From: Coriobacteriales bacterium
Lineage (GTDB): Bacteria > Actinomycetota > Coriobacteriia > Coriobacteriales > UBA8131
Direction of reading: 5' to 3'
DNA length: 64,000 nt
Assembly (NCBI GenBank): GCA_031290175.1
Contig: JAITOC010000009.1
Coordinates: forward strand, 10,285 to 74,284
The notes under the pieces were generated by a model. The model had not been told where the DNA came from, did not search any database, and saw nothing but the letters and a program-made list of their open reading frames with translations. The position numbers and the translations under genes are program-made. Below are positions 18,822-45,067 of this stretch, piece after piece (position 1 is the stretch's first letter; each line of letters begins with the position of its first letter).

Positions 18822-18822
18822 A

Positions 18823-19251
18823 TCACGCTTCCCTTTCCTTGGTGGTAGCAGGTTCGTTCGCGGCTGTTACGGGCTGTGGGTGACCACTTGCTGCTTCTAC
18901 AGCTGCTGCGGAATGTGGGTTCATCGGCGTGGGGATGCTGGTGGCATAGAAGTTGCCGCCAAAGTCGATGGCGATGCCTTTGATCTCCACGCCAAAGAGA
19001 TCATGTGCCTCGTTCTCAAACACAAAAGAGTTGAAGTACAGATCGCTTATCGAGGGAACCTCATCGTCGACTCCTACGCACAGGCGCAGGTTCTCAAAAG
19101 CCTCACCCTGTGAGAACGAGTAAAGGAGCTCGACGCCTGTGTCGATGGTCGATCCGCACACATTCACGAAGCGCCAGCCCTTATCCTTGTAGTCCTGCGT
19201 TTGGGTATGCAGTTGAGGCAGTGCTATGTCAATGAAAACCTGTGGATCCAT
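18823..19251 (-). CDS. echD: Ech hydrogenase small soluble subunit, NuoC-like
   Basis: 142 aa with NuoC/HycE-N-like sequence (FENEAHDLFGV). It occupies the position between the small and large subunit genes. Confidence 0.7.
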   Translation of the reverse strand: MDPQVFIDIALPQLHTQTQDYKDKGWRFVNVCGSTIDTGVELLYSFSQGEAFENLRLCVGVDDEVPSISDLYFNSFVFENEAHDLFGVEIKGIAIDFGGNFYATSIPTPMNPHSAAAVEAASGHPQPVTAANEPATTKEREA

Positions 19252-19260
19252 GGATCTCTC

Positions 19261-19791: not shown

Positions 19792-19800
19792 GCGCGTCTC

Positions 19801-22613: not shown

Positions 22614-22646
22614 CCCCACTTCCCTTCCTTGAGCACCGAAAACCCT

Positions 22647-26275: not shown

Positions 26276-28405
26276 TCAGAACAAAGGCTCCATACTGAGT
26301 ACGGGATGCCCTTTTTCACTGAGATGGTTCATCAGAACCTCAGGATCATCGGTGATCGTCTCGTCGCCGATCATATCGACGTAGTTATCGATGCCGTAAA
26401 GCTCTTTGGCAGTGGCGTTGAGCTTGGGAGCCACAAGCTCCTTGAGGGCCTTGGGCATCCAGACGATCCTGGCGGGGCCTCCCTCGGCACGCATGAACTT
26501 CTTGGAGGCGATGAAGTGCTTGCCGTGCCCCATGAAGCCCGGTGTCTGCACACCACCACCGGTCATCGATGCCATCTCAGAGAAGGACATGCCCAGAGGG
26601 GTGATGCCTGTGTGTTCGCGGTTTACGATAACGACGCCGTTGCTGTAGGTCTCGATGCCGCAAATGCACTCGAAACAGCCGCAGCTGGTCATCGGGTCGA
26701 CCATGATGGAGTACAGCGTGACCTGCTGGAGGTTGCCGTGCGATTGCGCGGCGACATTCTCGTTGACGTCCTCCCAGATCCCGACATGCTCATCCACTAC
26801 GCGCTCCTTGGTGACCACCTGGCAGGCACCGTTGGGGTCGAGCTGATTCATCGCCTTGGCATCCAGCCAAGACACAGCCCCGCAAAGTCCCAGGCGCTCG
26901 GGAGTGACGATACAGACATGCGCAGGCGAGAAGGATTGGCAGAGGATGCAGTTGTAGAAGACATCGACGGTCTCGTCGGTCATCGATGCAAGGCGCGCAT
27001 CGCGGGTATCGAAGACCTTGTTTATCTCCGTACGAAGCTCCTTGAGGTCTTCTGACTTCGTGTATATCTTGACCTGGCACTTGTCAATGAGAGCCTCGTA
27101 CTCACTTTTGATTTTGGCGTAGACAATCTCACCGATGTGCCTGAGACGGAAGCCCGCATTGAAGGCGTCCTTGCTGATGCGGATGCGGATGAGGTCGCGC
27201 TGCCCGGTATGCATGATGCCCTCAGCACAGTTGATGAAGTTGTGGAAGTTGCGCTCTATGACCGGCTCAAAGTCAGTGAGCATGTTCTTACCAGCAACCT
27301 CAGCAACGATACCGAGACCCACGCGCTCGCCCTCCTCAAAATCCTCCACATCGGGTCCGATTATCTCGATGGCATGATCCTCTATCTCGTGTATCTCGCG
27401 CATCCGTACCCACTCAAGGGAGTCGAAGCGGCTTCCATCGAAGTCGATGCGCGTGGCATCCCTCCTGACGATCTCGCCCTCGAAAGCAGATGAATAGGAG
27501 ACGGGTATATCGACCTTGGTGATCTTGAGCTTGATATCACGAGCCTCAAGTGAAGTCTCGATGAAGTCCTTCGTATCCGGTTGGATGATGATGCTCTTGG
27601 GTACCGGCCACATATCCTTGGGGTCGTCGGTGATGACCGGGAATCCCATCGCTATGGCACCTGCGCCACAGGAGACGACGAGGTCACTCACGGGGTCGAA
27701 GGCATTGACGAAGGCGTGGATGCGCCAGAACGTATAGTCATCAAAGTCCCAACGTTCACCAGGTTGGACAGCACCAAAGATCATAGCGGCTCTGTTGACG
27801 AAGGAGATGATATGCGCAACCTGCCAGACATCGGGCCCTACGGCTACGACGCGCACCGGGAAGCCCATGTTCATATTGAGACGTCGCGCCTGCGCGATAA
27901 CCTCACCGAGAAGGAATACGAATATGCCGCGAGCCTGATAGCCCTTAATGAGCTCAAGCGCCTCCTCATCCGTCGGTGCCTTGCCGTGGATAACGACGAA
28001 ACCGGGTATGTCATTGGTGACGAGCGGCACACCCAGCTCACGCACCTCGGCATCCGAGAGATGCCCGTGGTACTCACCGTTGTAAGGGTCGTCACTTTTG
28101 GCGTACTTGCAAGCTTCTATGACTTCTGCGGCAGCGAAGGTCGCGTAGCCGGTCTTGAAGACAGATCCCAGGTCGGGCTCATGGATATTCCAGGTCTTGT
28201 CTTCCTCGAATGCCGCCCTGAGATCCTTGAGACTCATAATCTGACGCTTGAAATACGTAAGGTGGTTCGCGAGATGATAGGCTGTATTGGGCATACTGAC
28301 GGGAGCGTTCTCGCCGAGTTCCGCAATGGTTTCATCGAGCGCCTTCTGCGCCAGGGCAAACATCTCGTCCGCTCCGTCAAACACCCTGTCGAATAATTTC
28401 TTCAT
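26276..28405 (-). CDS. acsB: acetyl-CoA synthase (CODH/ACS A-cluster subunit)
   Basis: 709 aa. Aligns along its whole length with my recollection of Moorella AcsB. A-cluster ligand motifs CILCQSFSPAHVCIVTPERLGLCGA and MTSCGCFECI are present. Confidence 0.96.
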   Translation of the reverse strand: MKKLFDRVFDGADEMFALAQKALDETIAELGENAPVSMPNTAYHLANHLTYFKRQIMSLKDLRAAFEEDKTWNIHEPDLGSVFKTGYATFAAAEVIEACKYAKSDDPYNGEYHGHLSDAEVRELGVPLVTNDIPGFVVIHGKAPTDEEALELIKGYQARGIFVFLLGEVIAQARRLNMNMGFPVRVVAVGPDVWQVAHIISFVNRAAMIFGAVQPGERWDFDDYTFWRIHAFVNAFDPVSDLVVSCGAGAIAMGFPVITDDPKDMWPVPKSIIIQPDTKDFIETSLEARDIKLKITKVDIPVSYSSAFEGEIVRRDATRIDFDGSRFDSLEWVRMREIHEIEDHAIEIIGPDVEDFEEGERVGLGIVAEVAGKNMLTDFEPVIERNFHNFINCAEGIMHTGQRDLIRIRISKDAFNAGFRLRHIGEIVYAKIKSEYEALIDKCQVKIYTKSEDLKELRTEINKVFDTRDARLASMTDETVDVFYNCILCQSFSPAHVCIVTPERLGLCGAVSWLDAKAMNQLDPNGACQVVTKERVVDEHVGIWEDVNENVAAQSHGNLQQVTLYSIMVDPMTSCGCFECICGIETYSNGVVIVNREHTGITPLGMSFSEMASMTGGGVQTPGFMGHGKHFIASKKFMRAEGGPARIVWMPKALKELVAPKLNATAKELYGIDNYVDMIGDETITDDPEVLMNHLSEKGHPVLSMEPLF

Positions 28406-28435: not shown

Positions 28436-29218
28436 CTAATGGGTTGCATAGCTATCGATTTTCTCCTTGATGAAATTGATTTCTTTCTGTATGGCCTCGC
28501 TGGTATCCAAAGCAGATACCTCCCGCTTGTCTGACTCGATCGCATCATCCGTATAGCGTATGAATCCGAGGATATCTTCTCCCCACAACCGCTCCCTCAG
28601 GTAGTCCTCGTCGGCGGTGCTCCGCACCTTGTTCCCGACGATGCTCACCCGGGTGATACCGAGGTCGGCGGCCAACTGCTTGATCTTGTGATAGGTCTGT
28701 ATGCTCCGTGTGCCCGGCTCGACGACAACGATGAAGCGGTCGACCATATCGGCCGTCCCTCGCCCCAGATGCTCGAGGCCAGCTTCCATGTCCATGATGA
28801 CCACATCGTCACGGTTGAGCACCAGGTGCGAGATGATGCGCTTGAGCATCACATGCTCAGGGCACACGCAGCCCCCTCCCCCGCTCTCGACCGTTCCCAT
28901 GAGAAGAAGCTTGACGCCATTCTTAGCGACCGCAAACCGATCGGGTATGTCATCGACCCGAGGGTTTATCTTGAAGAACCTGCCGTAACCCGCACTGTCG
29001 CTGCCCGTCCGCTCATTGATGAGGTCGTTCATCTTCGAGATCGGAGTGATGGCCAGAACCTCTTCCTCGGTGAATCCCAGTGCAAGACCCAGATTGGCAT
29101 CGGGGTCAGCGTCCACAGCCAGGACGGTCCTGCCCTCACGCGCATAGAGCCCTGCCAGTACGGAGGCCAGCGTGGTCTTGCCGACCCCTCCTTTACCTGT
29201 GACTGCTATCTTCAACAT
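28436..29218 (-). CDS. cooC: CooC/AcsF-type nickel-insertion ATPase
   Basis: 260 aa with deviant Walker A GKGGVGKTT and the CxC metal motif (CVC). Confidence 0.9.
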   Translation of the reverse strand: MLKIAVTGKGGVGKTTLASVLAGLYAREGRTVLAVDADPDANLGLALGFTEEEVLAITPISKMNDLINERTGSDSAGYGRFFKINPRVDDIPDRFAVAKNGVKLLLMGTVESGGGGCVCPEHVMLKRIISHLVLNRDDVVIMDMEAGLEHLGRGTADMVDRFIVVVEPGTRSIQTYHKIKQLAADLGITRVSIVGNKVRSTADEDYLRERLWGEDILGFIRYTDDAIESDKREVSALDTSEAIQKEINFIKEKIDSYATH

Positions 29219-29283: not shown

Positions 29284-31179
29284 CTAGATGCCGAGGAGAT
29301 CACGCTTCTTCTCGATTCCAGCGATTATTGCCTGGACGAGTTCATCCGGGTCGGTATTGATGTTGTAGCCGGCACCGGATATCTTCCGGGTTCCCTCAGT
29401 AATCAGCTGCATCATCTGCTCGCTCCCCTTGACCTGAGGCTCGATTCCCAGATAGGTGTCGATCCCTGTGGCGACGACATAATTCGCGATAGCGACGGCC
29501 TTCTCGCTCATCCACTCGGGCGCACATCCGACGACGGGGATGGAGGTGATGGGGACTTCCCATTGTTCGGCTATATCCGAGGCCAGCAGCATCATGCGGC
29601 TGATATCCACACAGGCTCCCATATGCAGGATTGGAGGGATACCGACAAGCGTGCAGACCCTCTTGAGTCCGTCGCCGCAGACCTCTTTTGCCGCTTTACT
29701 CATAAGGCCCGCCTTTGTGGCCGCCTGCGCCGCGCAACCCGTCGTGATAACGAGGATGTCGTGCTCCAGAAGTCGCCTCATGATCTCGATGTGGGAGTAA
29801 TCAGGACGAACCTTGGGGTTGTTACAACCCACCATGGCGACCGCGCCGCGCAGGACACCCGATTTGATCGCGTCGATAACCGGACGATAGGATCCTCGCT
29901 CTTCGACATGGCTGTTGGTGACTCCATCGAGCTCCTTGATGATCTGCTCATTGGGATAACCGACCGTCGCGTTCTCCTTGCTGGTGGGTATCCAGGCTCT
30001 GCTCTCATCACGATTTGCAAAGTTGTCGATGGCGTCTTTGACAATCTGCTTTGCCTGCTCCAGAGCCGTCTCGGGCACAAACTTGATATACTCGGAGCCG
30101 GGTATCCGGCAGATGGGAGAGGTCGTCACAAACCGGGTATGGAAGCACTCGGTCAAAGGGCCGAGCGAAGGGAAGATGCACTGCACATCGACACACATCA
30201 TATCGACCACACCAGTGAGCACCACATTCTCCTGCTGAAGGAAGTTCCCTACCATGCGTACACCGTGGCGCATGGCAACCTCGTTCGCGGTACAGCAGAG
30301 ACCTACAAGATTGATCCCCTTGATACCCTTGCTCTTGCAGTAACTCTGGAGCTCTGGCAGGTCGGCAACCGTAACCACCATCTCTGAGAAGGCGGGGTCG
30401 TGACCGTGTACGACGATATTGACCATATCCTTTTCCAGCACACCGAGATTACCTTCGGTGTCGCGCGCGGTGGGCGTCCCAAACATGATGTCGGTGAAAT
30501 CGGTGCCGATCATCGATCCGCCCCACCCATCGGCCATGCCAACGCGAAGGCTCTGACGAACCAGCACCTCGGCATCCGCCGTATTGCCCATATGGCTCAT
30601 GTGGAGTGAAGACGATATCTCTCGGTCAATCGCACGTGGCGCTATCTCCTCGCGCTCCCAGAGTTCTTGGCGCTCCTTTGTGGCTCGCTTGAGAAGAACC
30701 TGGGTGCCAAAGGGCTTCCCAAACTCATTGAGGGCGAACAGGGCGACATCATGGGCGACATCATAGACATCGCGATCTTCAAAGGCGATGTCCCATTCCG
30801 TTGCGACCCTCTTGAGCTTTGCCTCATCACGGATGATATAGGGACCTTCGGGCTTTGTTGCAAGGAGGGTGTGTGCTATCTCGCGCGCGTGGTCTGAATG
30901 AGCCGCTGAACCCGCTGCCGCCATGCGGAGGTAGTGCCGCCCCGCGATGGTATGGGCGTCCGCGCCACATATCCCGCGTGGAGCTTTGGCCGTGATGCGG
31001 CAAGGCCCCATGGAGCATATCCTGCAGCAGATGCCTTCCTCGCCGAACTTGCAGTGCGGAGTCTGCTTCTCGTTGCGGTCAGCCCAGGTCTCCGTACACG
31101 CCTCGCAGGCAAGTTCATGCAGTTTTGCGGTATCGGCTTCCATCTGTTCAATGGTGGTGAAGTTCAATTCCGGTTTCAA
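29284..31179 (-). CDS. acsA: anaerobic carbon monoxide dehydrogenase catalytic subunit
   Basis: 631 aa. Has the N-terminal cluster motif CKFGEEGICCRICSMGPCRI and length typical of CooS/AcsA. Confidence 0.95.
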   Translation of the reverse strand: MKPELNFTTIEQMEADTAKLHELACEACTETWADRNEKQTPHCKFGEEGICCRICSMGPCRITAKAPRGICGADAHTIAGRHYLRMAAAGSAAHSDHAREIAHTLLATKPEGPYIIRDEAKLKRVATEWDIAFEDRDVYDVAHDVALFALNEFGKPFGTQVLLKRATKERQELWEREEIAPRAIDREISSSLHMSHMGNTADAEVLVRQSLRVGMADGWGGSMIGTDFTDIMFGTPTARDTEGNLGVLEKDMVNIVVHGHDPAFSEMVVTVADLPELQSYCKSKGIKGINLVGLCCTANEVAMRHGVRMVGNFLQQENVVLTGVVDMMCVDVQCIFPSLGPLTECFHTRFVTTSPICRIPGSEYIKFVPETALEQAKQIVKDAIDNFANRDESRAWIPTSKENATVGYPNEQIIKELDGVTNSHVEERGSYRPVIDAIKSGVLRGAVAMVGCNNPKVRPDYSHIEIMRRLLEHDILVITTGCAAQAATKAGLMSKAAKEVCGDGLKRVCTLVGIPPILHMGACVDISRMMLLASDIAEQWEVPITSIPVVGCAPEWMSEKAVAIANYVVATGIDTYLGIEPQVKGSEQMMQLITEGTRKISGAGYNINTDPDELVQAIIAGIEKKRDLLGI

Positions 31180-31215: not shown

Positions 31216-31986
31216 CTAGACGATTATCCGAGACAGAATCTCCTCGAAGGCAATCCGGGCAGATGAATCAACAGGGAGCTGTATGGTTGGCTTCCCCTCA
31301 CAGTCAAAGGCGTAGACCAGGGGGTCTGCCGGGACGATCCCCGCAAAATCGAAGCCCTGGAACTCGATCTCCTCGGCCGTCCCTGGATCCAATACCCCAT
31401 CTGGTGCCCTGTTAACAATGAGCTTCATGGCACTGGGTTTCAATGCAAGCTCGTTGACCAACTCTTGGATGCGCGCAGCCGCCTGTATGCCTCGGCGCGA
31501 ACAGTCGGACACGAGGATGACCATATCGATCGCAGGCAAAGTGCCTCTGCTGATATGCTCCATTCCTGCCTCGTTATCGACAATGAGATAGCGATAGCTG
31601 TCGACGTATTTTCTGATACGCCCCTGTAGCAGATCATTGACGAAGCAGTAGCAGCCCTTACCCTGCGTCCGACCCATGACGATCAGGTCATAGTCGTCTT
31701 CTTCGATAAGGGTTCTGCCAAAGTAGGCATCGAGGTAGTCCTGCTTCGACATTGAAGCAGGAATGGGATCCTCCGTGTCGAAGTCCGCATTCGCGATCTT
31801 CTCGCGGAGGTCACCTAAGGTGTAATCGACCTTGACACCGAGCACCTCGTTGAGGTTGGAGTTCGCATCGGCGTCCACTACGAGCACGGGCTTCTTCCCT
31901 ACCCGTGTGAGATAGTCAACCAGCAGCCCCGTCAATGTTGTTTTGCCGGTTCCACCCTTACCTGCGACGGCGATGATATAGGCCAT
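31216..31986 (-). CDS. cooC: CooC-type nickel-insertion ATPase (second copy)
   Basis: 256 aa with GKGGTGKTT and the CxC motif (CYC). Confidence 0.9.
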   Translation of the reverse strand: MAYIIAVAGKGGTGKTTLTGLLVDYLTRVGKKPVLVVDADANSNLNEVLGVKVDYTLGDLREKIANADFDTEDPIPASMSKQDYLDAYFGRTLIEEDDYDLIVMGRTQGKGCYCFVNDLLQGRIRKYVDSYRYLIVDNEAGMEHISRGTLPAIDMVILVSDCSRRGIQAAARIQELVNELALKPSAMKLIVNRAPDGVLDPGTAEEIEFQGFDFAGIVPADPLVYAFDCEGKPTIQLPVDSSARIAFEEILSRIIV

Positions 31987-32789: not shown

Positions 32790-33042
32790 GTGATCCTCCT
32801 TCATAGTCCCGCTCGGTCTTCTGGTCAGCGTCAAAGGGGGATACCCTATGGCTGCACTATCAGACTAGGGGTTGAAAATATTCACAGCAATCCGTTTGAT
32901 TGATGGAGAGATGATGCGTGTTTTCCTACACAATGCCGGAAAGGTTCAGGCGGGTCGGGAGCATAGAGGGAATCTATAATGGAGCTTGTTCGGATGGACG
33001 CAGGAATCATGCAACCGGGGGAGCCTTGAAAGGAGAACCATC

Positions 33043-33363
33043 ATGCACACTGAATCAGGACACACTTCACATCCACACGAGCATTCGCACGCACATATCC
33101 ATGAGCATTCACATGAGCACCCCTGTGATAACCTGCACACCCATCAGCATCCCGTGGGACAGAATGAGACCAGCGCGCTGCTGGGATATCTCATCGAGCA
33201 CAACACGCAGCACACCGACGAGCTGCTCACCCTTGCCGGCGATGCACAACAGAACGGATTGGTCGAGGTAGCAAAACGCATCGAAGCCGGTGCGACGCTC
33301 TACCGATCAGGCACCGAGGAGCTGGTCAAAGCACACGCACTCCTAAGAAAGGCGACAGTATAA
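33043..33363 (+). CDS. histidine-rich putative Ni/Co-binding protein (CooJ-like role inferred)
   Basis: 106 aa from ATG 33043, preceded by AAAGGAGAA. The N-terminal 40 residues are about 40 percent His (HPHEHSHAHIHEHSHEH), followed by a helical C-terminal domain. TAATG overlap with cooT. Confidence 0.6.
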   Translation: MHTESGHTSHPHEHSHAHIHEHSHEHPCDNLHTHQHPVGQNETSALLGYLIEHNTQHTDELLTLAGDAQQNGLVEVAKRIEAGATLYRSGTEELVKAHALLRKATV

Positions 33364-33557
33364 TGTGCCTCTCAACAGTACGCTACGCAACTGACAGCGA
33401 GTCGGACGCCCCTATCGCCAGCAACGTCACCTCTGTCGTTGTCAACGGCAGCAGGATAATGCTTACCGACCTTATGGGAAGCGAAATTGAGGTTGTTGGG
33501 GCAATCGTGCGGGTTGATCTCATAAAGAACCATATCATCATCGCGACCGCTGCTTGA
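33363..33557 (+). CDS. cooT: CooT family nickel-binding CODH maturation protein
   Basis: 64 aa. Starts MC (conserved Cys2) and shows the CooT-like pattern ...IMLTDLMGSEIEVVGAIVRVDLIKNHIII. Confidence 0.78.
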   Translation: MCLSTVRYATDSESDAPIASNVTSVVVNGSRIMLTDLMGSEIEVVGAIVRVDLIKNHIIIATAA

Positions 33558-33569: not shown

Positions 33570-35072
33570 TCACTCGTTCTTGAGCAGCTCGAATGACAGA
33601 AGCACGTACCACTGAGAATCGAAGTTCGTCATGTCGATGCCACATATCTTCTGGATACGCTCAAGCCGATAAGAAAGCGTGGTGCGATGGATGAAGAGCT
33701 CACGTGCCGTATGTGCCAGATTGAGATGGTTTTTCAGGTAGACATACAGCGTATTGTACAGCTCGGCATGATGCTCCCTGTCGTATGCTCTCAGGGCAAG
33801 CAGTTCCGGGGAACAGACCAAGGTCGCAGGTAGTGCCGTAGTGCAACTTTTAAGCAGGAGTGGCTTCACGATCCTATCGAAATGGAACAGTTCTCTATAG
33901 GGAAACGCCTGGGGGCCGAGCTCGAGCGCCAGGTCTGCTTGAGCACCATACTGACGCAGGTCGTCTAACCCGGAGAAGATGTTGCTCATCCCTGCTTTCA
34001 TGAAATTATCCCGCAGATACAGCGTCAATATCCGCTCAAACTCATCCCTGCTCCCCCGATACAGATCCAGATTGATGATAGCAACGATGCTTTCTCCGAG
34101 CTCGAACACGCCAGTCTCCGCAAGCATGCTCGCGATACGTTCGCGGATGAACCTGAGGGTTCGATCTCGATGCACCCTGATGTCGATGTGGAACCTCAGG
34201 GACACATAATGGTGCTGCGGCAACCACCCATAACCTTCGAGCTTCCTGACGATAGATTCCGTCTTCGTGAGGGAGCCCTCCATGATGAGTTTCAGGGTGT
34301 CCGCCAGACCGGGTTCCGCCGGGGTATACTCCGGCACGAAACCGATGGCCAGATGGGTGATCTCCGCAAGGTACTCCAACAAGACGGCGTCAGAGGATTT
34401 CAGAGCCTGCTTGAACTCAATCAGGATGAGGCGATACTTGAGCATGTCCTGTTGCACGATATTGACGCAGAACCCACGCTTCTCCTGTATGAGCAAGGGC
34501 AGGACATGGATACTCCCTGCCAGAGCTGAACTTGTGTCCATGGCAGAGCGCATCAGATAGGGCAACCGCATGCTGTTGAGAAGGGGCACCAGGTCAGGAT
34601 CTACCCCGATGTCATTCGAGAAGGCGACGGCCTTGAAGTTGACATCGTGAAGAAGCAGGGGGTTGCCGAACAGTTCGGTGCTCACATCGATCATCGCCTG
34701 CACATCCGATCCACTGCTGAGCATGGAATGTATACGTGCCTCCCAGAGATCATAGCGCGCAAAGATGTCCTGGAGGCCGTTGTGAACCTTGAACAGCGTA
34801 GCGCCGCTGTTGATGACAACGGCAGCATCGAAGTGCTCCAGGAGCTCCTCCGGAGCCGTACCGACGATGAGGATGAGCGATGAGACGGTGTTGGGAGGCA
34901 GAGGAATGTCGGAGGCGTCCTCGACAAGGTAGACCTGATCATCCATCCACGTTGTCCCCGGCTCGACGAAGAGGATGCGATGGATGACTGGCTTGCTGTC
35001 AGGCGTGCCGATAACGGTGCAATCAAAGGCCTCTTTCAGCCCCTCGGATATCATTTCAGCACTGATCTTCAT
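33570..35072 (-). CDS. PucR family transcriptional regulator
   Basis: 500 aa with the C-terminal PucR HTH ARELFIHRTTLSYRLERIQKICGIDM. ATGA overlap with the upstream DUF3786 gene. Confidence 0.85.
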   Translation of the reverse strand: MKISAEMISEGLKEAFDCTVIGTPDSKPVIHRILFVEPGTTWMDDQVYLVEDASDIPLPPNTVSSLILIVGTAPEELLEHFDAAVVINSGATLFKVHNGLQDIFARYDLWEARIHSMLSSGSDVQAMIDVSTELFGNPLLLHDVNFKAVAFSNDIGVDPDLVPLLNSMRLPYLMRSAMDTSSALAGSIHVLPLLIQEKRGFCVNIVQQDMLKYRLILIEFKQALKSSDAVLLEYLAEITHLAIGFVPEYTPAEPGLADTLKLIMEGSLTKTESIVRKLEGYGWLPQHHYVSLRFHIDIRVHRDRTLRFIRERIASMLAETGVFELGESIVAIINLDLYRGSRDEFERILTLYLRDNFMKAGMSNIFSGLDDLRQYGAQADLALELGPQAFPYRELFHFDRIVKPLLLKSCTTALPATLVCSPELLALRAYDREHHAELYNTLYVYLKNHLNLAHTARELFIHRTTLSYRLERIQKICGIDMTNFDSQWYVLLSFELLKNE

Positions 35073-35725
35073 CGTCTGCTGCCATTCCGTATGGCTATGA
35101 GATGGTTGATACTGATATCACCTATGACCGCAAGATCCTCCGCTGAGAACGCGGAGCGGAAGTTCTCGTCAAAGAGCACCTGGACTGACGGGGGGAACTC
35201 ATCATCTGCTGCCCATATCAGGATGCTCATGGGAAAACCGGAAAGGAACTCGAAGCAATACCCCACATCAGCATGAGCGACGCGTCTGGCATTGAGCTGT
35301 GATGCCCGCTCCATGACCTGCCCCAGGGATTCCGGATCACGACCGAACTCCCGCAGCAGTCTCCCAATGACGCGTCCCTGGAAATTGCTGGCATAGGTCT
35401 GTGCCCGGGGGAACTCCCGGTACGCCAACTCCCTGCCGGTCGGTTCCGTAAAGCACCCTTCGATGAGGAATCGCAGGATAAGGATACGTTCATAGGCTCG
35501 AGCTTCGGTGAGCTCTTCTTCTCTGACCATCGAGAAGTGTGGCCAGGATACCCGGTACCCCTGCCCCATGAGCGTCAGGCGGAACACCGCCGCGCCCTGC
35601 TCATATTCCAGCCCTGTGCGCAGGGCGATAACAGAGGGATCCATGCCCTCATAGAGAGCAGTGTAATGCTCAAGGGCTCGTGCGGTCAGCTGGTCATCCT
35701 GTGGGGACGGAGCCGTTTTTGCCAT
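35069..35725 (-). CDS. DUF3786 domain-containing protein
   Basis: 218 aa from ATG 35725, 11 nt after the RACo stop codon. The track ORF extends to 35974, but that part overlaps the RACo 3' end. It is a paralog of 45068-45745. The family name is from memory. Confidence 0.6.
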   Translation of the reverse strand: MAKTAPSPQDDQLTARALEHYTALYEGMDPSVIALRTGLEYEQGAAVFRLTLMGQGYRVSWPHFSMVREEELTEARAYERILILRFLIEGCFTEPTGRELAYREFPRAQTYASNFQGRVIGRLLREFGRDPESLGQVMERASQLNARRVAHADVGYCFEFLSGFPMSILIWAADDEFPPSVQVLFDENFRSAFSAEDLAVIGDISINHLIAIRNGSRR

Positions 35726-35738
35726 TCTCGCTACACTT

Positions 35739-37673
35739 TCATCTGGAAAAGAGCGATGCATCGGTATGGGGCAGGAAGCAGGCCGCGACGAATTCATCCA
35801 TATAGGACGGCATGGAGCTGAGCTCGACGTAGGTGATGTTATTCGCCAGAGCACACAGCTCGTCGTATGCCTCAGATGCCGAAAGAATCGCGTAGGAACC
35901 CGCCAGGGACGTATTCCCGATATAGGAATAACCCTCCCTTGGAATATTGGGCAGCATTCCAACTCCCACTGCATGCTCGATATCGATGGCGCTCCCTATG
36001 CCGCCCGCGATGTAGATGTGCTCGATGACGCTCATATCCATGTCCGCAATGGCAAGAATCGTGCGGATGGCCGAGAAGACCGAGCCTTTTGCGCGTATGA
36101 AGTTTTCGATATCCGCGTCATTCAGCGCCACCTCCTTGGCACCATCTGCCTCCTCAGCGGTTGCGATGATATAGGAGGTGCTTCCCCATTCGTCTTTTCG
36201 TATCCGATCCCCCTCCCGCTGAAACCGCCCTCGGGCATCTATGATCCCCGTCCGATAGAGTTCACCGATGGCGTCGATCAGACCCGAGCCGCAGACGCCC
36301 CTGGGCTTCTGATCGGGCTCCCCTATCACCTTGTAGCAGGGGTTCATCGTTGCGTCGTCAATCTCAAGCGCTTCGATAGCTCCATCGGTCGCCCGCATGC
36401 CGCAACTGATATCGCCTCCCTCAAAAGCAGGACCGGCGCTGCACGCACAGGCCATCAGGAAGTCAGAATTGCCGAAGACTATCTCACCGTTGGTTCCGAG
36501 GTCAATCAACATGGAAAAGGAGTCGCTGCGGCCGATCATGGAGGCAAGGACGCCCGCCGTTATGTCGCCCCCCACATAACTACCGACGGCGGGAGCAAGA
36601 AGCACGCGGGCATCAGGGTTTACCTCAGCCATCAACTCGGAGCCCCGGAGCCCCTCCAGGGAGAAGAATGCGGGAACGTAGGGCTCCAGCCGCAAATGGT
36701 TGCCGTAGACCCCCGTGAAGAGATGGATCATCGTGGTATTGCCCGCTACGGCGACACGCACGATGGAGGAAGCGCGGCGATTGATGCTTTCGACCAGGGA
36801 TCTCACCAATGGCTGCAGGCACTCTGTGACGATCGCCTCGCGCAAGCGCTCCAGACCGCCTGCGCGAGTGGACTCGATAAGGCGATTGATGACATCGGCA
36901 CCGAAGCGTATCTGCCCGTTGCCCGCCGACCCCGAGGCCAGTATCTGTCCGGTACTGAGGTCGGTCAGCAAGGCCGATACCGTCGTCGTACCGATATCGA
37001 TCGCCAGCCCCAGAGGAGCCTCGTTCTTGGATGAGACATCAAGGATGGTCAGGTTCCCGTTCGATTCCGTCTGGATAGTTGCCACAACGGTAAAGTCTGT
37101 CTCGCGGAGCGCGTGTGGCAAGACGCGAAGCGCACCGATTCCGACGCTTATCCTCTCCTCGGATACCCCAGTGCTTCCCGCCAGGGCGTGTAGCAGGCGC
37201 TCCTGATCCGCCTGGGCATCATCAAGCGTGGGAACCGAAAGGCTGACCTCACGCAACTCATACCCCTCAACAAGGGTGTGTCCAAGGCGAGCCAGTATCC
37301 CAGTAATGGCCGTGCGTGCGGCCTCCTCACGTGGGTTATCACTGCTGGAGACTCGTATTCCGCTCTGATATGCGGAGGCCTCAACGGGAACCTCAACCTC
37401 GATATCCCCGCGCAGGGTGCTGACGCATGCCAAGACCCATCCTTGGGCTGATTCCGCATCGTTTATGTGGCGGTTCTTGGGACTTTCCACCTCGCCGCGA
37501 ACCACGCGCACGCGACACTTCCCACAGGTCATATTCCCTGCACAGGGAGCGTCGATGGGCACGTTCGCATGCTTTGCGCTATCCAGCAGACTTGTGCCAA
37601 CGGCTGTTGATGCAACAATCTTCCGACCATCAGCAAGAGCGAAATTGACCCTGACAGCATCCATGTGAACCAA
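35739..37673 (-). CDS. reductive activator of corrinoid proteins (RACo; [2Fe-2S] plus ASKHA/DUF4445 ATPase, COG3894)
   Basis: 644 aa. Has the N-terminal plant-type ferredoxin motif CAGNMTCGKCRV and an ASKHA region GLAIDIGTTTV...DLGTNGEI. Alternative ATG at 37664. Confidence 0.85.
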   Translation of the reverse strand: MVHMDAVRVNFALADGRKIVASTAVGTSLLDSAKHANVPIDAPCAGNMTCGKCRVRVVRGEVESPKNRHINDAESAQGWVLACVSTLRGDIEVEVPVEASAYQSGIRVSSSDNPREEAARTAITGILARLGHTLVEGYELREVSLSVPTLDDAQADQERLLHALAGSTGVSEERISVGIGALRVLPHALRETDFTVVATIQTESNGNLTILDVSSKNEAPLGLAIDIGTTTVSALLTDLSTGQILASGSAGNGQIRFGADVINRLIESTRAGGLERLREAIVTECLQPLVRSLVESINRRASSIVRVAVAGNTTMIHLFTGVYGNHLRLEPYVPAFFSLEGLRGSELMAEVNPDARVLLAPAVGSYVGGDITAGVLASMIGRSDSFSMLIDLGTNGEIVFGNSDFLMACACSAGPAFEGGDISCGMRATDGAIEALEIDDATMNPCYKVIGEPDQKPRGVCGSGLIDAIGELYRTGIIDARGRFQREGDRIRKDEWGSTSYIIATAEEADGAKEVALNDADIENFIRAKGSVFSAIRTILAIADMDMSVIEHIYIAGGIGSAIDIEHAVGVGMLPNIPREGYSYIGNTSLAGSYAILSASEAYDELCALANNITYVELSSMPSYMDEFVAACFLPHTDASLFSR

Positions 37674-39097: not shown

Positions 39098-39658
39098 TTA
39101 TCCGTGGATCAATGAAAGAACCTCATGCCGCGAACGAATGGAGGTCTCGAAGGCGCCCCGCACTGCCGAGGTCGTCGTCGTGGTTCCCGGTTTCTTGACT
39201 CCCCGCATCGACATACAGAGATGCTCCGCCTCGATGACGACGATGACAGCATCCGCCTCAAGCTGCTCCATCAGGGTGTCCGCTATCTGGGATACCATGC
39301 GCTCCTGCACCTGGAGCCTTCGGGCATAGGCCTCCAAAAGCCGAGCCAGCTTGGATAGCCCACAGACATGACCCCGTCTGCCGGGGATGTAGCCGATATG
39401 CGCGACGCCAAAGAAGGGCACCAAGTGGTGTTCACACAGCGAATAAAAAGGCATATCTTTGACGAGGACGATCTCGTGATGATGCTCATCGAATACCTTC
39501 TGCAGTATCGATGCGGGATCCTGTTCGTTACCCGCGAGCACCTCCTTGTACATCCGCGCCACCCGTGCCGGTGTCTCACGCAGCCCTTCGCGCAAGACAT
39601 CCTCCCCTACTCCTTCAAGGATGAGACGGACGCCTTGCTCTATCTTGGTCAGATCCAT
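39098..39658 (-). CDS. folE: GTP cyclohydrolase I (type IA, Zn-dependent)
   Basis: Closely resembles Bacillus FolE as I recall it. Contains [18 protein letters not shown] and [15 protein letters not shown] chose ATG 39658; TTG 39670 is also possible. Confidence 0.93.
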
Positions 39659-39670
39659 AGGAAACCTCAA

Positions 39671-40297
39671 CTATCTCGTTATCGATGGGACAGGAGAAGC
39701 CAGCAGCATCTTCCATACCGCTGGTTCGATGGTGCACGTGGCAGCCATCTCGATGATCGCAACCCCGGGCTGTAACTCCCCGAGCGTTCGGACGATCTGT
39801 TGTTTCGTGCCTTCGTCGACGAGGTCGATCTTATTCAACAGGATTGTGGTTGCCCCTTCAAGCTGTCGTCGTATCATCCTATCATTAAAAGCAATCAGCT
39901 TGATGAAACGACTGGCATCAACGACCACAAGAGAACTGACGGAAGCATCAAGACCTCTGCATGAGCGTATTTCGGCTTCGATCTCGGACGGTATGGCAAG
40001 ACCGGTCGCTTCGATGATGAGCCATTCGGGGTCGTACAACTCCCGAATCTCTTGTATCGTCAAACTGAGATCGTCTGCCAGGTTGCAGCAGATGCAACCT
40101 GCAATCAGCTCCCGCACCTCCAAACCCCCTGCCCGCAAGGTGGCTCCATCAATGCTCACAGAACCGATCTCGTTCTCGATGATGACGACCGCGGTGCCCG
40201 TATCACGACGCGATACATCCTTGAGATACATGGCAAACGGAAGCAGCAGGCTTGTCTTCCCCGAGCCGAGGAATCCGCTCAAGAGCACTATCCTCAT
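39671..40297 (-). CDS. short COG0523 (CobW/HypB/UreG-superfamily) GTPase metallochaperone lacking the CobW C-terminal domain
   Basis: About 208 aa from ATG 40297, preceded by GGAAGGAGGGA. Has Walker A GFLGSGKTS and the CxCC motif GCICCNL. It ends directly before folE. Confidence 0.8.
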   Translation of the reverse strand: MRIVLLSGFLGSGKTSLLLPFAMYLKDVSRRDTGTAVVIIENEIGSVSIDGATLRAGGLEVRELIAGCICCNLADDLSLTIQEIRELYDPEWLIIEATGLAIPSEIEAEIRSCRGLDASVSSLVVVDASRFIKLIAFNDRMIRRQLEGATTILLNKIDLVDEGTKQQIVRTLGELQPGVAIIEMAATCTIEPAVWKMLLASPVPSITR

Positions 40298-40559
40298 CAC
40301 AGTCCCTCCTTCCCTAGTGCGCGGCGTCCCGCAGAAACAAGACCTATCCGTCATCTGTTAGCATGATACTTCCCTCGAAGCCCTGAACTTTGGTGAAGAC
40401 CTACACAGTTCTTGTACTTTTCCTACCTATGCCGTCAAATCGATTCCTGAACCCATGATCCATTGTCTATACTTAGCAGCAAATCCCTTTGATGCTAGAC
40501 AGGGTGCATATACTCCGTACCGCATATGACATCTTCGAAGACAACAACAGGAGGTAGCG

Positions 40560-42074
40560 ATGACCGCCCGGCGACCAATAGTAACATTCACTGATGAACA
40601 GAAGCGTGTTGAGGCAGATGTGGGTGACAACCTGCTCGACCTCATCCTCGAGCAAGGCATCGCCATCAAAGCTGATTGCGGCGGCGTGGGCACCTGTGGC
40701 AAGTGCCGCGTGCTCGTCGATGGCGAGGTACAACATGCCTGCCTCACCCGGGTTGTCCGCGACACCGAGGTGCTCGTGGTCGATGTGGATGCTGCCGATG
40801 GCTATGCGATCCTGACGGAGTTCAGAGAGGATGGTACGGGGAAGGTCGATCTGTCCGGTGCCACAAGCCCGGCAGGATCGGATCTCGCAGTCGCCATCGA
40901 TATCGGCACGACGACGATAGTCGGCAAGCTCCTTGACCGTTCAAGCGGGATCGAATTGGCATCCTTTGCCCAGCTGAACTCCGAGCTACCCTACGGTGCC
41001 GATGTCATCTCGCGTATCAAGGTCTGTCTCGAGGATGCATCCACGCTCTCCTCCCTTATCACCGAGCAGATCGACACCGCAATCTCAGAAATGCTTGCAA
41101 GCAGTCAGGTCGACCGCAGCTCGATCTCACGCGTGGTTCTGGCAGGCAACACGACGATGGTCTATATCCTGCTGAACCTGCCCTGTCAATCGCTTGGCTT
41201 CTCTCCCTTCATCCCCGAGATTCCCGTTGACCTGACTTATCCCTATACTCGGATATTCCATACCGACACGCTCACCTGCGATTGCACCATCATCCCTTTC
41301 ATCTCCGGCTACGTAGGAGGAGATATCACAGCTGGTCTGCTTTCCTTGGCCTCAGAGGACGATTTTATCCTTATGGACATGGGCACCAACGGAGAGCTCG
41401 TGTTTAAGCGGGGAGATCACCTCATCTGCACCGCGACTGCAGCAGGGCCTGCATTCGAGGGCGGCAATATCGAATGCGGATCAGGAAGTGTCCGGGGTGC
41501 CATCTCAAAGGCTTGGTTCGAGGATGGGAAGATTACCTTCAAGACGATTGGTGGGGAGCGACCAGTGGGCATCTGCGGCTCCGGCATCCTCGACCTGGGC
41601 GCTCTGCTCGTCAGGGAGCGGTTCATAGATGAGACCGGCTATCTCGACGATGACCTCGGCAGCGACCGCATCGTCCTGACAGACAAGCCCGACAGCAACC
41701 CTGAGGTCTATTTTTCACAGAAGGATGTACGCCAGTTCCAGCTCGCAAAGAGCGCGACCCGCACAGGTCTTGAGATTATCATCGATGAGATGGGCGGTGC
41801 CCTGCCCTCGAAGGTCTTCCTCGCCGGAGGCTTCGGACAGAACCTCGATCCGGCCAGCGCCATTGCGACAGGCATGCTCCCCGAGAGCTTTGCGGGGCGC
41901 GTATCCCCTATCGGCAACAGCTCCCTCAACGGTGCTATAAAGGCGTGCTTAAATGACGCACTGGTCAGCACCGCCGCAGGTTCCATCGAGCACGCAGTCG
42001 AGATAAACCTCGGATCACATCCGAAGTTCAACGACCTGTTTATGGATCAGATGGCATTCCCAACGGAGTCATGA
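40560..42074 (+). CDS. second, shorter RACo-type corrinoid reductive activator ([2Fe-2S] plus ASKHA)
   Basis: 504 aa. Contains CGGVGTCGKCRV, and ASKHA motifs AVAIDIGTTTIV and DMGTNGELV. RBS AGGAGG upstream. Confidence 0.85.
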   Translation: MTARRPIVTFTDEQKRVEADVGDNLLDLILEQGIAIKADCGGVGTCGKCRVLVDGEVQHACLTRVVRDTEVLVVDVDAADGYAILTEFREDGTGKVDLSGATSPAGSDLAVAIDIGTTTIVGKLLDRSSGIELASFAQLNSELPYGADVISRIKVCLEDASTLSSLITEQIDTAISEMLASSQVDRSSISRVVLAGNTTMVYILLNLPCQSLGFSPFIPEIPVDLTYPYTRIFHTDTLTCDCTIIPFISGYVGGDITAGLLSLASEDDFILMDMGTNGELVFKRGDHLICTATAAGPAFEGGNIECGSGSVRGAISKAWFEDGKITFKTIGGERPVGICGSGILDLGALLVRERFIDETGYLDDDLGSDRIVLTDKPDSNPEVYFSQKDVRQFQLAKSATRTGLEIIIDEMGGALPSKVFLAGGFGQNLDPASAIATGMLPESFAGRVSPIGNSSLNGAIKACLNDALVSTAAGSIEHAVEINLGSHPKFNDLFMDQMAFPTES

Positions 42075-42133
42075 GGTGAGCTCAGACTCGTCACTCCAGT
42101 ACGATACACTTAAGCCCCGAAGAAAGGAAAGCC

Positions 42134-42697
42134 GTGCTAGCAGAGGAAACCAAGGTTGAGACCGCACTGGAAACGCTGAAAGTGTTTCTGTGGCATGAGA
42201 TGACCTCGTTCGACCCGCGCATCCTCAGCTTCACCCAGGAGATACGCTCCATATGTGAGAGCAATGGCTGCGGGCGCTACAACAAGGTCTGGAACTGCCC
42301 ACCCGCTGTAGGCTCACTTAAGGAGCTGGAAAAGAGCCTTCGTGTCTACCGGGAAGCCATTCTCTTCACTGAGTTGTCATGGCTCGAGAGTCCCTTTGAC
42401 TGGGATGCCATGGTCTTGGGTGGCAAGAGTTTTGACAAGCGGCTTGCACTTGCCAATAACCATCTGAAGCAGGCATTCGACGGAACCGACACCGCGTTTA
42501 AGCTCTTTGGCTCAGGGATGTGCCAATCATGTGACTCATGCACCTATCCCGATGCGCCCTGCAGGTATCCCGACCTGCTGTTCACACCAATTGAAGCCTG
42601 TGGGATCAATGTGGTTGAACTCTCCCAAAAAGTGGGCATCGCATACAACAATGGCGAGAACACCGTAACTTGGTTTGGCATGATTCTCATCGCATAG
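42134..42697 (+). CDS. DUF2284 predicted metal-binding protein
   Basis: 187 aa with the Cys patterns CESNGCGRYNKVWNCPP and CQSCDSCTYPDAPCRYP, which I recall as typical of DUF2284. GTG start. Confidence 0.72.
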   Translation: MLAEETKVETALETLKVFLWHEMTSFDPRILSFTQEIRSICESNGCGRYNKVWNCPPAVGSLKELEKSLRVYREAILFTELSWLESPFDWDAMVLGGKSFDKRLALANNHLKQAFDGTDTAFKLFGSGMCQSCDSCTYPDAPCRYPDLLFTPIEACGINVVELSQKVGIAYNNGENTVTWFGMILIA

Positions 42698-42736
42698 CGC
42701 GATAGGATTCTCTGAAGTTTTAGAGACCTTACAGAT

Positions 42737-42771
42737 AAAGGCTCCGCGAAGTGATACTTCACGGAGCCTTT
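42737..42771. terminator. bidirectional intrinsic terminator between convergent DUF2284 and mtaB
   Basis: AAAGGCTCCGCGAAGT-GAT-ACTTCACGGAGCCTTT forms a 16-bp stem with one mismatch, with an A-run before and a T-run after. Confidence 0.7.
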
Positions 42772-42799
42772 ACGCCACATCCCCCGATGTGAGATAGGA

Positions 42800-44176
42800 T
42801 TAGAGGTCGAACTTCTTGGGCTGGAACAAATCGCCGCAGGAGTCCGCCATCTTCGCGAGGAAGGCATCGTCGGTGTCGGGCATACCGGAGAGGGTATCCA
42901 GAAGCAGGTCGATGTAACCGACCTCACGGTCGATAAGGAGCAGCTCGTTGTTATCGTATCCCTTCTGTATCGCCTGAAGAGCCAATTCGGCACCCTTCTT
43001 CATCCTCAGGTAATGCGTATCCTGCTTGACAAGCTCCTGCGAGATTGCCAGGGCGACATCGGGACGCAGGATGTATGCCATCGGGTCAAGCCTGCTGTCA
43101 CTGTCAGCATTGAGATCCCTGATGGCACGCGCGAGCTTGATGTCCTTCCTCAGCGCACCGTTCATGATGCGACAGTCATAGGCCAACTGCTCGAAGGAGA
43201 CAACCTCAGAGAAGCCACCCATCAACTTGATGTGCTGGATGGACTCGTTGCTCCACAGGTCGCACACACAGGAAGCGATGTTGCCAAGAGGCGACAGGTG
43301 CGCAACGGCAGCTACGCGTCCTTCATTCGTGATAGGTGTCCCCGATATGGCCTTAAGATAGATATTCTCATAGCCACAGTCCTTGCTGGGACCCTTTGCG
43401 CCTTCTTCTACGGCGACGAGGGTACGAACGGATGCGACCACGCGATCAGCAGCTGCGAACACGCGTGGAATCATGTTCTTATCGGCAAGCACCAAGGATG
43501 TATTTGCGAATCCGCAGGCAGTGTCGCCCGCGGGGATCGAACCGCTATCGTTGGCAATCTTGACGATCTCGGACCAGAGCCTGCTCATGTCCTTGGAACC
43601 GAGCCAAAGACCAAATATGGTCTTCTCGATGTCACAGTACATACACCCTTCGTCATGGATGTCCTTGCCACCGACCGATTCGATCGACAGAAGGTCGGCG
43701 CCAGCTTCGGCGCTCCTCTTGAAGGTATCAAGCACCAAATCCCACTCTTTGCCCGACCACATGTGCTTGACATTGGGGCCTTCGCGGAGGTCGATGACCG
43801 TGGTGCGCACGGCGGTCTTAGTGCCGTGATTCGTATCGTTGTCACGCAGTACGTCCTTGACGACCTTTGTTATCTCGGCACCCCATTTTGGTACCCAGGT
43901 CATCTCAGGAAGGATCTCGATCTCGGCAACAAAGCCGGGGTGGTACAGTTCATTGCAGCGCTCGGAAATCCCCGTGGCGATCTCATGATAGATACGGACA
44001 ACCTCAGGCCAGGATTCCTCAGAAATGGTCATGGTGGGGAGAGAGAAGTTGACCTCGGGGTACACGATGCCGCCACCAATCTCAAGCCCACTCTTGGTGG
44101 TAACCGGGTACTTCGCACTTCCGAAGATGAAGTCATCCAGATTCTTATAGGCAGTATCTTTGAACAGCTTTCCCAT
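42800..44176 (-). CDS. mtaB: methanol:corrinoid methyltransferase (MT1), MtaB family
   Basis: 458 aa. Aligns end to end with Methanosarcina MtaB as I recall it: ADLLSIESVGGK, GDTACGFANT, SKDCGYENIYLKAI and CDLWSNES are conserved. Confidence 0.88.
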   Translation of the reverse strand: MGKLFKDTAYKNLDDFIFGSAKYPVTTKSGLEIGGGIVYPEVNFSLPTMTISEESWPEVVRIYHEIATGISERCNELYHPGFVAEIEILPEMTWVPKWGAEITKVVKDVLRDNDTNHGTKTAVRTTVIDLREGPNVKHMWSGKEWDLVLDTFKRSAEAGADLLSIESVGGKDIHDEGCMYCDIEKTIFGLWLGSKDMSRLWSEIVKIANDSGSIPAGDTACGFANTSLVLADKNMIPRVFAAADRVVASVRTLVAVEEGAKGPSKDCGYENIYLKAISGTPITNEGRVAAVAHLSPLGNIASCVCDLWSNESIQHIKLMGGFSEVVSFEQLAYDCRIMNGALRKDIKLARAIRDLNADSDSRLDPMAYILRPDVALAISQELVKQDTHYLRMKKGAELALQAIQKGYDNNELLLIDREVGYIDLLLDTLSGMPDTDDAFLAKMADSCGDLFQPKKFDL

Positions 44177-44223
44177 TACAAAAACCTCCTTCGTGATAGC
44201 TTAGAATAGTGTCTCGCAGTAGA

Positions 44224-44856
44224 CTACGAAACAAGTTCCTTGGCAACGTCTACGGCGGAAGACGAATCGGTCGAATACGCATCCGCGCCTATCTTCCTTG
44301 AGAAATCGAGCGATATCGGTGTTCCACCGATCATGACCTTGACCTTGTCGCGCAGACCTGCTGCCTTGAGTGCCTCGATGACGACGCCCTGCTGCTCCAT
44401 GGTGGTCGTGAGCATAGCAGACATGGCGATGATGTCAGCATTGCGCTCCTTGGCGGTCTCGACGAACTTCTCAGGTGCAACATCGATGCCCAGATCGATG
44501 ACCACGAAGCCTGCACCTTCCAGCATCATCTTGACGAGGTTCTTGCCGATGTCGTGCAAGTCACCCTTAACTGTACCGATAACGACGGTACCGATCTCCT
44601 TGACACCATCTGCCACGAGAAGCGGCTTGATGAGCGCCGTGCCCGCTGCAAGAGCCTTGGCAGCCATGAGCACCTCGGGTACGAAGATCTCATTGTTCTT
44701 GAACTTCCCGCCAATGATATCCATTCCTGCCAACAGACCGTCATTCAGGATCTTCTCGGCCTTCACGCCGTCGTCAATGGCCTGTTGCGCGAGCTGCTCA
44801 ACATCCTTGACCTTGCCCCTCTGTACCGCAGTTGAAAGATCGTCGAAAATAGACAT
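44224..44856 (-). CDS. mtaC: methanol-type corrinoid protein
   Basis: 210 aa with the B12-binding DxHxxG motif (GDLHDIGK). It lies directly upstream of mtaB, with RBS GAAGGAGGAA. Confidence 0.88.
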   Translation of the reverse strand: MSIFDDLSTAVQRGKVKDVEQLAQQAIDDGVKAEKILNDGLLAGMDIIGGKFKNNEIFVPEVLMAAKALAAGTALIKPLLVADGVKEIGTVVIGTVKGDLHDIGKNLVKMMLEGAGFVVIDLGIDVAPEKFVETAKERNADIIAMSAMLTTTMEQQGVVIEALKAAGLRDKVKVMIGGTPISLDFSRKIGADAYSTDSSSAVDVAKELVS

Positions 44857-44916
44857 ACCGTTCCTCCTTCTCGTAAACCAAACCTACTGCAACCATTGCC
44901 TTAAGCATCGATGTAC

Positions 44917-44937
44917 GACAGAGCCGACGGTTCTGTC
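44917..44937. promoter_or_regulatory. 21-bp near-perfect palindrome upstream of mtaC (candidate operator)
   Basis: GACAGAGCCG-A-CGGTTCTGTC, with 9 of 10 arm positions symmetric. It lies 61-81 nt upstream of the mtaC start, in the divergent region shared with the DUF3786 gene. Confidence 0.35.
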
Positions 44938-45067
44938 ACGTGAATCTTGCCTACGACATCTCTGCTCCTTACGTGCAGTCTAAACAGACTGAGTTTTAAA
45001 GTATTGTGACAAACGAACCTGATTTTGCACTTTTCCGCCCTTTGCGCAAGGTTCAGTAACGGGGTCT

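Follow-up and report, generated by a model that had tools for sequence, protein, structure and literature searches.

A His-rich DUF8180 protein and CooT as a probable nickel-handling pair beside the CODH/ACS operon of a Coriobacteriales bacterium

Results

A His-rich protein gene overlaps a CooT gene next to the CODH/ACS operon

We analyzed 64,000 nucleotides of DNA from a Coriobacteriales bacterium (contig JAITOC010000009.1; the whole stretch is called the window here), in which a gene for a His-rich protein overlaps a gene for CooT and both are divergent from an operon for carbon monoxide dehydrogenase and acetyl-CoA synthase (CODH/ACS). This translationally coupled pair is probably a nickel-handling module for the adjacent CODH/ACS. 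Its linkage to cooC, CODH, and ACS genes is both tight and wide and, therefore, supply of nickel to the CODH subunit AcsA and to the acetyl-CoA synthase AcsB is the best reading of the pair. In Rhodospirillum rubrum, cooC, cooT, and cooJ mutants require added nickel, and CooJ binds about 4 Ni per monomer (PMC6006190). The His-rich protein belongs, by its sequence, to the Pfam family DUF8180 (PF26551). The features of the pair are listed below, with positions counted from the first nucleotide of the window.

33043..33363, plus strand: DUF8180 His-rich gene including the stop codon (open reading frame with ribosome-binding site, 106 amino acids, Pfam PF26551)
33043..33159, plus strand: disordered His-rich N-terminal region, residues 1-39 (MH start, 14 His, 1 Cys, mean predicted local distance difference test score, pLDDT, of 46-60)
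33160..33360, plus strand: two-helix hairpin domain, helix 40-70 and helix 74-105 (AlphaFold2 model and column conservation)
33187..33222, plus strand: helix-1 motif Y49-L-I-E-H53-N54-T-Q-H57-T-D-E60, predicted metal site (conservation and register of the CooJ motif)
33363..33557, plus strand: CooT gene, 64 amino acids, begins MCLSTV (PF10133)

The open reading frame (ORF) of the His-rich protein starts with the ATG at 33043, which has an AGGAG 7 nucleotides on its 5′ side, and ends with the TAA at 33361-33363. The stop codon shares one nucleotide with the CooT ATG (TAATG). The N-terminal sequence of the protein is MHTESGHTSHPHEHSHAHIHEHSHEHPCDNLHTHQH, and 14 His fall within residues 1-36, which has a binomial probability of about 1e-15 at the background His frequency of 1.8% taken from 13 neighboring genes. 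The codons of the tract are a mix of CAC and CAT and its 12-nucleotide periodicity (33070-33119) is weak; thus, the tract is not a simple DNA repeat. A 64-residue Cys-rich ORF on the minus strand (32946-33140), antisense to the tract, mirrors the His codons (as GTG/ATG) and is no gene. In the AlphaFold2 model (m4e68e3fd6732, built with a 69-sequence alignment), residues 1-39 are disordered and the helices 40-70 and 74-105 have pLDDT values of 93-99. A first-pass annotation of this DNA had described a 106-residue protein with a His-cluster N-terminus and a helical domain, overlapping a 64-residue, MC-initiated gene by one nucleotide, and the ORF, the His count, the model, and the coordinates agree with this description.

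The second gene had been taken for CooT, and a search with PF10133 bore this out. The 64-residue ORF matched with 55.4 bits against a cut-off of 27 (E 7.8e-15), over residues 1-60 of the 60-position model, and Cys2 is present. In an alignment of the window CooT with nine partner CooTs, M1, C2, L3, D36, G39, G46, D52, and L53 were invariant. When the profile of these 10 CooTs was compared with the PDB, the top three entries were 6FAN, 5N76, and 6Y8V, all aligned end-to-end with weak E values of 0.03-0.04. Cys2 of the window CooT aligns with Cys2 of 5N76 and 6FAN. This residue is the reported nickel ligand of CooT, which holds 1 Ni per dimer (PMC6006190).

The His-rich protein is a DUF8180 member with conserved helix-1 residues

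Scans of the Pfam and NCBIfam libraries with the His-rich protein found no family; the Pfam copy used predates the PF26551 model. A word-indexed protein search with the single sequence as query also returned nothing beyond the His-rich protein itself. A full HMMER search, run against 1.8 billion representatives, gave 99 relatives at E < 1e-3, nearly all of them 80-150 amino acids long and aligned end-to-end, and the family profile retrieved at least 1,755 clusters (90% identity). The best 120 of these all had the precomputed assignment PF26551.1, the family named DUF8180. The same assignment is already attached to the identical protein on record (P0001), a "hypothetical protein" of a metagenome-assembled Coriobacteriales genome.

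Residue conservation was counted over 209 members. H53, N54, and H57 of the helical domain are invariant, and E60 (92%), Y49 (89%), G72 (87%), M or L at position 50 (85%), and G90-N91 (80%) are strongly kept. An MH start is present in 171 members (82%), which favors the ATG at 33043 over an upstream TTG at 32986 as the start codon. The stretch before the helices has a median of 13 His and ranges in length from 5 to 247 residues. Judged from this alignment, the window protein is a full-length DUF8180 member with every conserved position. Compared with the PF26551 consensus, it has T91 rather than N and Y87 rather than F, and it has one Cys whereas many members have a four-Cys segment.

Two variations within the family were also seen. 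Many Lachnospiraceae-type members (P0102-P0216; loci L002, L005-L009, and L013) have a conserved N-terminal MH(L/I)xxDENGNxxPHG segment and a four-Cys stretch (for example, CGSCSGGDC) directly before the helical domain. The window protein has neither, suggesting an extra metal site in the Lachnospiraceae-type subgroup. In another member (P0065, 220 amino acids, 281-943 of L022), the C-terminal half of a CobW/HypB/UreG-type (CobW/G3E) GTPase domain is joined by a His/Cys-rich linker to DUF8180, and CooT follows. The contig of this locus is 1.3 kb long and, hence, the fusion may reflect a frameshifted upstream cobW gene.

The pair is linked to CODH/ACS genes across distant relatives

Co-occurrence of the pair with acsA/cooS was checked at 14 distinct loci of Y-type DUF8180 members, that is, those with the Tyr form of the motif (the window, L001/L021, L002, L005, L006, L007, L009, L011, L012, L013, L018, L019, L020, and L022). 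CooT lies directly 3′ of the DUF8180 gene and on the same strand at all 14. The spacing between the two, measured at ten loci, goes from a 1-nucleotide overlap to a 51-nucleotide gap, and every partner CooT whose sequence was read (13 of the 14) starts with MCL(A/S). Wherever the contig is long enough, CooC and CODH, AcsB, or corrinoid iron-sulfur protein (CFeSP) genes are found within a few kb of the pair. The DUF8180 proteins at these loci are only 33-50% identical to the window protein, so the linkage has been kept well beyond close relatives. The contig scan of genomes, which required a very narrow alignment, gave one locus, and the metagenome scan gave four. A tblastn search of plasmids with the DUF8180 consensus gave no match.

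Two arrangements were seen. At eight Lachnospiraceae/Clostridiales-type loci, the genes usually stand in the order DUF8180, CooT, sometimes MTHFR, CooC, CODH, CooC, and AcsB, all co-directional; as exceptions, CFeSP genes follow at one locus, and B12-binding and GntR genes are inserted at another. At the Coriobacteriia-type loci (the window, L001/L021, and L018), a convergent PucR regulator gene follows the pair, and in the window and L021 the CooC-CODH-AcsB genes are divergent from it. The two cooC genes that had been reported in the facing operon of the window were found on either side of the CODH gene, as listed below.

32790..33042, no strand: divergent intergenic region of 253 bp between the pair and the acs operon, presumed site of both promoters
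31216..31986, minus strand: CooC-type P-loop ATPase, upstream of CODH (PF01656, PF13614)
29284..31179, minus strand: Ni-CODH catalytic subunit AcsA/CooS, likely nickel client (PF03063, 556 bits; TIGR01702, 613 bits against a cut-off of 478)
28436..29218, minus strand: second CooC/AcsF-type ATPase, between CODH and AcsB (PF01656, PF13614)
26276..28405, minus strand: acetyl-CoA synthase AcsB, likely nickel client (PF19436, PF03598, PF18537)

Related loci carry a CooC-type ATPase at the same position upstream of CODH. No sigma-70-like site, terminator, Rfam match or riboswitch, or notable repeat was found in the 253-bp intergenic region.

A proposed route for nickel

Nickel could move through these proteins in the following way. 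The DUF8180 protein would act like CooJ: its predicted two-helix hairpin would dimerize into a four-helix bundle, in which H53, H57, and E60 of helix 1 would make up a specific metal site. Several Ni(II) would be captured and buffered at lower affinity by the flexible N-terminal tail, with its MH start and HxHxH tract. The CooT dimer, with Cys2 as ligand, would next take over the nickel and hand it to the two CooC/AcsF-type ATPases, for insertion into AcsA (C-cluster) and AcsB (A-cluster).

The first-pass annotation had named AcsA and AcsB, and possibly the large subunit of an Ech-type hydrogenase, as the recipients of nickel. Gene linkage favors the first two. Delivery to the Ech large subunit found no support, since the pair lies beside acs genes at 8 loci whose displayed flanks contain no hydrogenase gene. 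In addition, the CO-induced hydrogenase of R. rubrum is reportedly not a client of CooC, CooT, and CooJ (PMC6006190).

A more specific version of this proposal is tentative, and we would put it forward as a possibility rather than an expectation. DUF8180 could be a distinct and very widespread branch of CooJ-type nickel chaperones that is specialized for acetogenic CODH/ACS. Its members would combine the Tyr/His/His/Glu site on the helix with the Met-His terminus as a second, HypA-like nickel site and, with CooT, would feed both CooC/AcsF ATPases for the C-cluster and the Ni-Ni A-cluster. HypA has an N-terminal MHE nickel site, which the DUF8180 start, Met-His followed by an acidic or small residue in 82% of members, may resemble. 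Unlike HypA, DUF8180 has no zinc-finger domain, and the two folds are not related.

DUF8180 shares the motif register of CooJ

In CooJ, a coiled-coil domain that carries the nickel-site motif HWXXHXXXH is combined with a disordered His-rich region, and the protein is reported to be hard to recognize by sequence (bioRxiv 10.64898/2026.03.10.710785). The window protein is similar in several ways. Both are about 100 amino acids long, both have a two-helix domain (predicted here) and a disordered His-rich region, both have an HxxxH motif early in helix 1, and both are encoded beside cooT and cooC in a CODH cluster. The DUF8180 positions Y49-(M/L)50-x-x-H53-N54-x-x-H57-x-x-E60 are in register with HWXXHXXXH. 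The differences are that DUF8180 has Tyr for the first His and Leu or Met for Trp or Phe, and that it keeps the additional N54, E60, and MH amino terminus. The gene order also differs. The DUF8180 gene, cooT, and cooC stand in that order at the head of, or divergent from, the acs operon, while the known order is cooS-cooC-cooT-cooJ.

The literal HW form of the motif is present in just 2 of about 210 DUF8180 members (P0074 and P0097, with HWIDHNDSH and HWVNHNDSH), both of which are assigned to PF26551. The helical domains alone of these HW-type members scored 26-35 bits against a hidden Markov model of the Y-type helical domains, compared to 11.4 for the best of 4,000 shuffles. The shared register, together with the HW-type members, makes a common origin of DUF8180 and CooJ plausible.

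These results change two points of the first-pass annotation. The His tract at the amino-terminal end had been described as an inverted architecture, which is not new because CooJ of Shewanella fodinae and of Clostridium pasteurianum BC1 has its His-rich region at the N-terminus as well (10.64898/2026.03.10.710785). The protein had also been placed in a family likely unrelated to CooJ. This is doubtful given its DUF8180 membership, the motif in CooJ register, and the existence of literal HW members, and a CooJ relative seems more likely than an unrelated family on these motif comparisons.

A pair of this kind has been noticed and deleted before in an acetogen

A gene pair of the same kind was described at the edge of the Wood-Ljungdahl gene cluster of Clostridium autoethanogenum, where a His-rich protein (hp) is encoded with a CooT-family protein (nbp), as CAETHG_1604/1605 (Nwaokorie et al. 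2023, PMC10230548). The same study noted conservation of the hp/nbp pair in C. ljungdahlii, C. drakei, C. carboxidivorans, E. limosum, A. woodii, and T. kivui. Deletion of either hp or CooT lowered the AcsB and CooS1 proteins 1.5-1.8-fold, and both mutants showed growth defects in rich medium and made less acetate and ethanol (PMC10230548). The hp deletion removed 341 bp, or about 113 amino acids (PMC10230548). As in the window, a His-rich protein of about this size is encoded directly beside a CooT-family gene near Wood-Ljungdahl genes. The pairs differ in their hosts, a Clostridium compared to a Coriobacteriales metagenome-assembled genome, and in their surroundings, since the window pair is divergent from the operon and is followed by a PucR-type regulator. 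A genomic-context study has also annotated 68 "potential CooJ" genes next to CooT, and reported that CooJ and CooT are accompanied by genes of one-carbon metabolism in the CODH operons of clade E (eLife 2026, PMC13056359). A His-rich protein and CooT pair of this kind is, thus, a conserved feature of acetogen genomes that was previously noticed and knocked out, and not a new one.

Points against nickel delivery to CODH/ACS

Several observations weigh against the proposal that the pair delivers nickel to CODH/ACS and that DUF8180 is a CooJ relative. Nickel as the metal, the dimerization, the order of transfer, and the client enzymes are what we infer from the genes and the predicted fold. In 89% of DUF8180 members, Tyr stands where the CooJ motif has its first His, and the window sequence Y-L-I-E-H-N-T-Q-H does not fit a literal H-(W/F)-x-x-H-x-x-x-H, having two of the three His and no W or F. 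When PDB sequences were searched with HMMER at E values up to 10, CooJ (6HK5) was matched by neither the family profile nor an HW-type member nor an engineered CooJ-like query, and the same kind of search with the single window protein found neither CooJ nor any real relative. Foldseek returned only generic helical hairpins from the PDB (rubrerythrin halves, ROP, and ESCRT-III), with a best E value of 1.

The HW-type members are another such point. Their genes (L016, 4467-4733, HWVNHNDSH; L015, 583-867, HWIDHNDSH) are flanked on one side by a gene for a diadenylate cyclase (DACND/DACNH/DAC domains) and on the other by one for a GH3 (NagZ-like) protein, and neither CooT nor CODH genes were seen nearby. 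The fold is, therefore, not tied to CODH alone, and the HW-type subgroup may serve a different client.

The C. autoethanogenum study adds to this side too. The deletion phenotypes were mild, with growth in minimal medium unaffected, and with added nickel the CooT mutant was like the parent; the study covers nickel supplementation and not nickel limitation (PMC10230548). The hp protein is a candidate DUF8180 member, judged by its size, His-richness, and context.

Other possible roles of the His-rich protein

Another possible explanation is that the His-rich protein is a general cytoplasmic buffer or store for Ni, Zn, or Co, like Hpn, with no specific delivery to CooT, CooC, or CODH/ACS. Its disordered His-rich tract is like the nickel-storage tails of Hpn, HspA, and SlyD, and the large variation in length of the tract among family members, the HW-type members away from any CODH context, and the mild, pleiotropic effects of the C. 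autoethanogenum knock-outs would all suit a buffer. However, the strict head-to-tail pairing with CooT at every Y-type locus and the position at the heads of acs operons point to a dedicated role, and the invariant residues of the helical domain would be superfluous for a pure buffer. We consider this explanation rather unlikely, with nickel handling for CODH/ACS the preferred reading.

It is very unlikely that the protein is a metal-sensing regulator, either a CsoR/RcnR-type repressor or a Ni-dependent partner of the PucR-type regulator controlling the acs genes. At the three Coriobacteriia-type loci (the window, L001/L021, and L018), the pair is followed by a convergent gene for a PucR-type regulator and then by one for a DUF3786 protein (33570-37673 on the minus strand of the window, 10513-12774 in L001, and 8563-13546 in L018), and in the window and L018 by one for the corrinoid activase RACo. 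The PucR neighbors in L001/L021 and L018 are 39-43% identical to that of the window. This synteny could be taken for a regulatory partnership, as could the shift in abundance of the C1-cluster proteins in the knock-outs. The ligand set of RcnR is a His by the amino terminus and an HxxxH on a helix, and the N-terminal His and helix HxxxH of DUF8180 resemble it. In contrast, PF02583 matched none of 69 members at E values up to 1, an hhalign comparison of the family profile with E. coli RcnR gave a probability of 0.1%, and the two-helix model has no DNA-binding element. A CsoR/RcnR-type regulator was, accordingly, rejected. A characterized family with another role, such as CsoR-type regulators, had been raised on first pass as an outcome that would speak against nickel delivery, and we found no CsoR/RcnR match and no regulator or transporter features. 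PucR neighbors are not present at the eight Lachnospiraceae-type loci, and the PucR-type regulator itself may be a lineage-specific regulator of the acs genes.

Handling of cobalt or zinc, for example for the corrinoid iron-sulfur protein or a CobW-type GTPase, is equally improbable. NCBI labels some DUF8180 members "cobalt transporter", one member is fused to the cobW GTPase fragment, and corrinoid proteins and a CobW-like gene are found within the window. The obligate partner, CooT, is instead a nickel protein, and corrinoids enter proteins as complete cofactors. The protein has no hydrophobic segment (the Kyte-Doolittle mean over 19 residues peaks at 0.16), which led us to reject a transporter. 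RcnA, ZIP, and ZnuA match weakly and at the His tracts only, far under their cut-offs (RcnA NF007454 gave 9.4 bits against 195 with the window protein), which is a plausible reason for the database name.

Other genes of the window

33570..35072, minus strand: PucR/CdaR-type helix-turn-helix regulator, convergent with CooT (PF13556)

The facing minus-strand operon opens with a methyltetrahydrofolate:CFeSP methyltransferase gene. Its start is most likely M16 (MIIIGEK, 32789), because the NCBIfam match begins at residue 16 and because of a AAGGAGGA site. After AcsB, the operon continues with both CFeSP subunits, a second methyltransferase, and the Ech-type hydrogenase, a group 4 [NiFe] enzyme whose genes (17266-22619) immediately follow the acs genes in the same direction. 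The nickel-site motifs RICGICSFGH and DPCISCTER are present in its large subunit, and no hyp maturation genes were recognized among the scanned ORFs of the window.

Beyond CooT, the PucR-type regulator, DUF3786, and RACo genes are all convergent with the pair. The DUF3786 ORF as listed (35069-35974, minus strand, 301 amino acids) overlaps the end of the RACo gene; its Pfam match begins at residue 112 and, therefore, the gene probably starts at an internal Met shortly past the RACo stop. Immediately 5′ of GTP cyclohydrolase I, a gene (39098-40354, minus strand) encodes a 227-residue CobW/G3E-family GTPase. Among NCBIfam models, this protein matches "CobW-related selenoprotein" best, with 83 bits against a cut-off of 180, and it could be another metallochaperone nearby.

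A cobalamin riboswitch (RF00174, 15028-15145, minus strand, 35.7 bits against a cut-off of 31.5) precedes genes for a DUF4430 protein, an unassigned ORF, a double ABC ATPase, and an ECF S-component-like protein (14926 down to 11055), which are probably a corrinoid uptake operon. A methanol methyltransferase module at 40560-45745 comprises a second RACo-like activase (40560-42074), DUF2284 (42134-42697), MtaB (42800-44176), a B12-binding, MtaC-like protein (44224-44856), and a second DUF3786 protein (45068-45745). This module suggests methylotrophic acetogenesis in this Coriobacteriales genome.

Discussion

How CODH and acetyl-CoA synthase obtain their nickel is still poorly understood, and industrial gas fermentation uses acetogens as hosts. 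The window adds an example from the Coriobacteriales of the conserved accessory pair of a His-rich DUF8180 protein and CooT. The pair opens no new category of biology. What this analysis adds is the assignment to DUF8180, the definition of the predicted site at the level of residues, the conserved Met-His terminus, and the link between the Y-type and HW-type motifs. Judged by the family analysis, the database name "cobalt transporter" appears to be wrong.

DUF8180 is worth testing as a relative of CooJ, and H53, N54, H57, E60, and the Met-His amino terminus are targets for mutagenesis and metal binding. If the family is a CooJ-type nickel-chaperone branch specialized for acetogenic CODH/ACS, which we regard as possible, a Pfam domain of unknown function would gain a role, and hp/nbp, the "potential CooJ" genes, and DUF8180 would be united under one mechanism.

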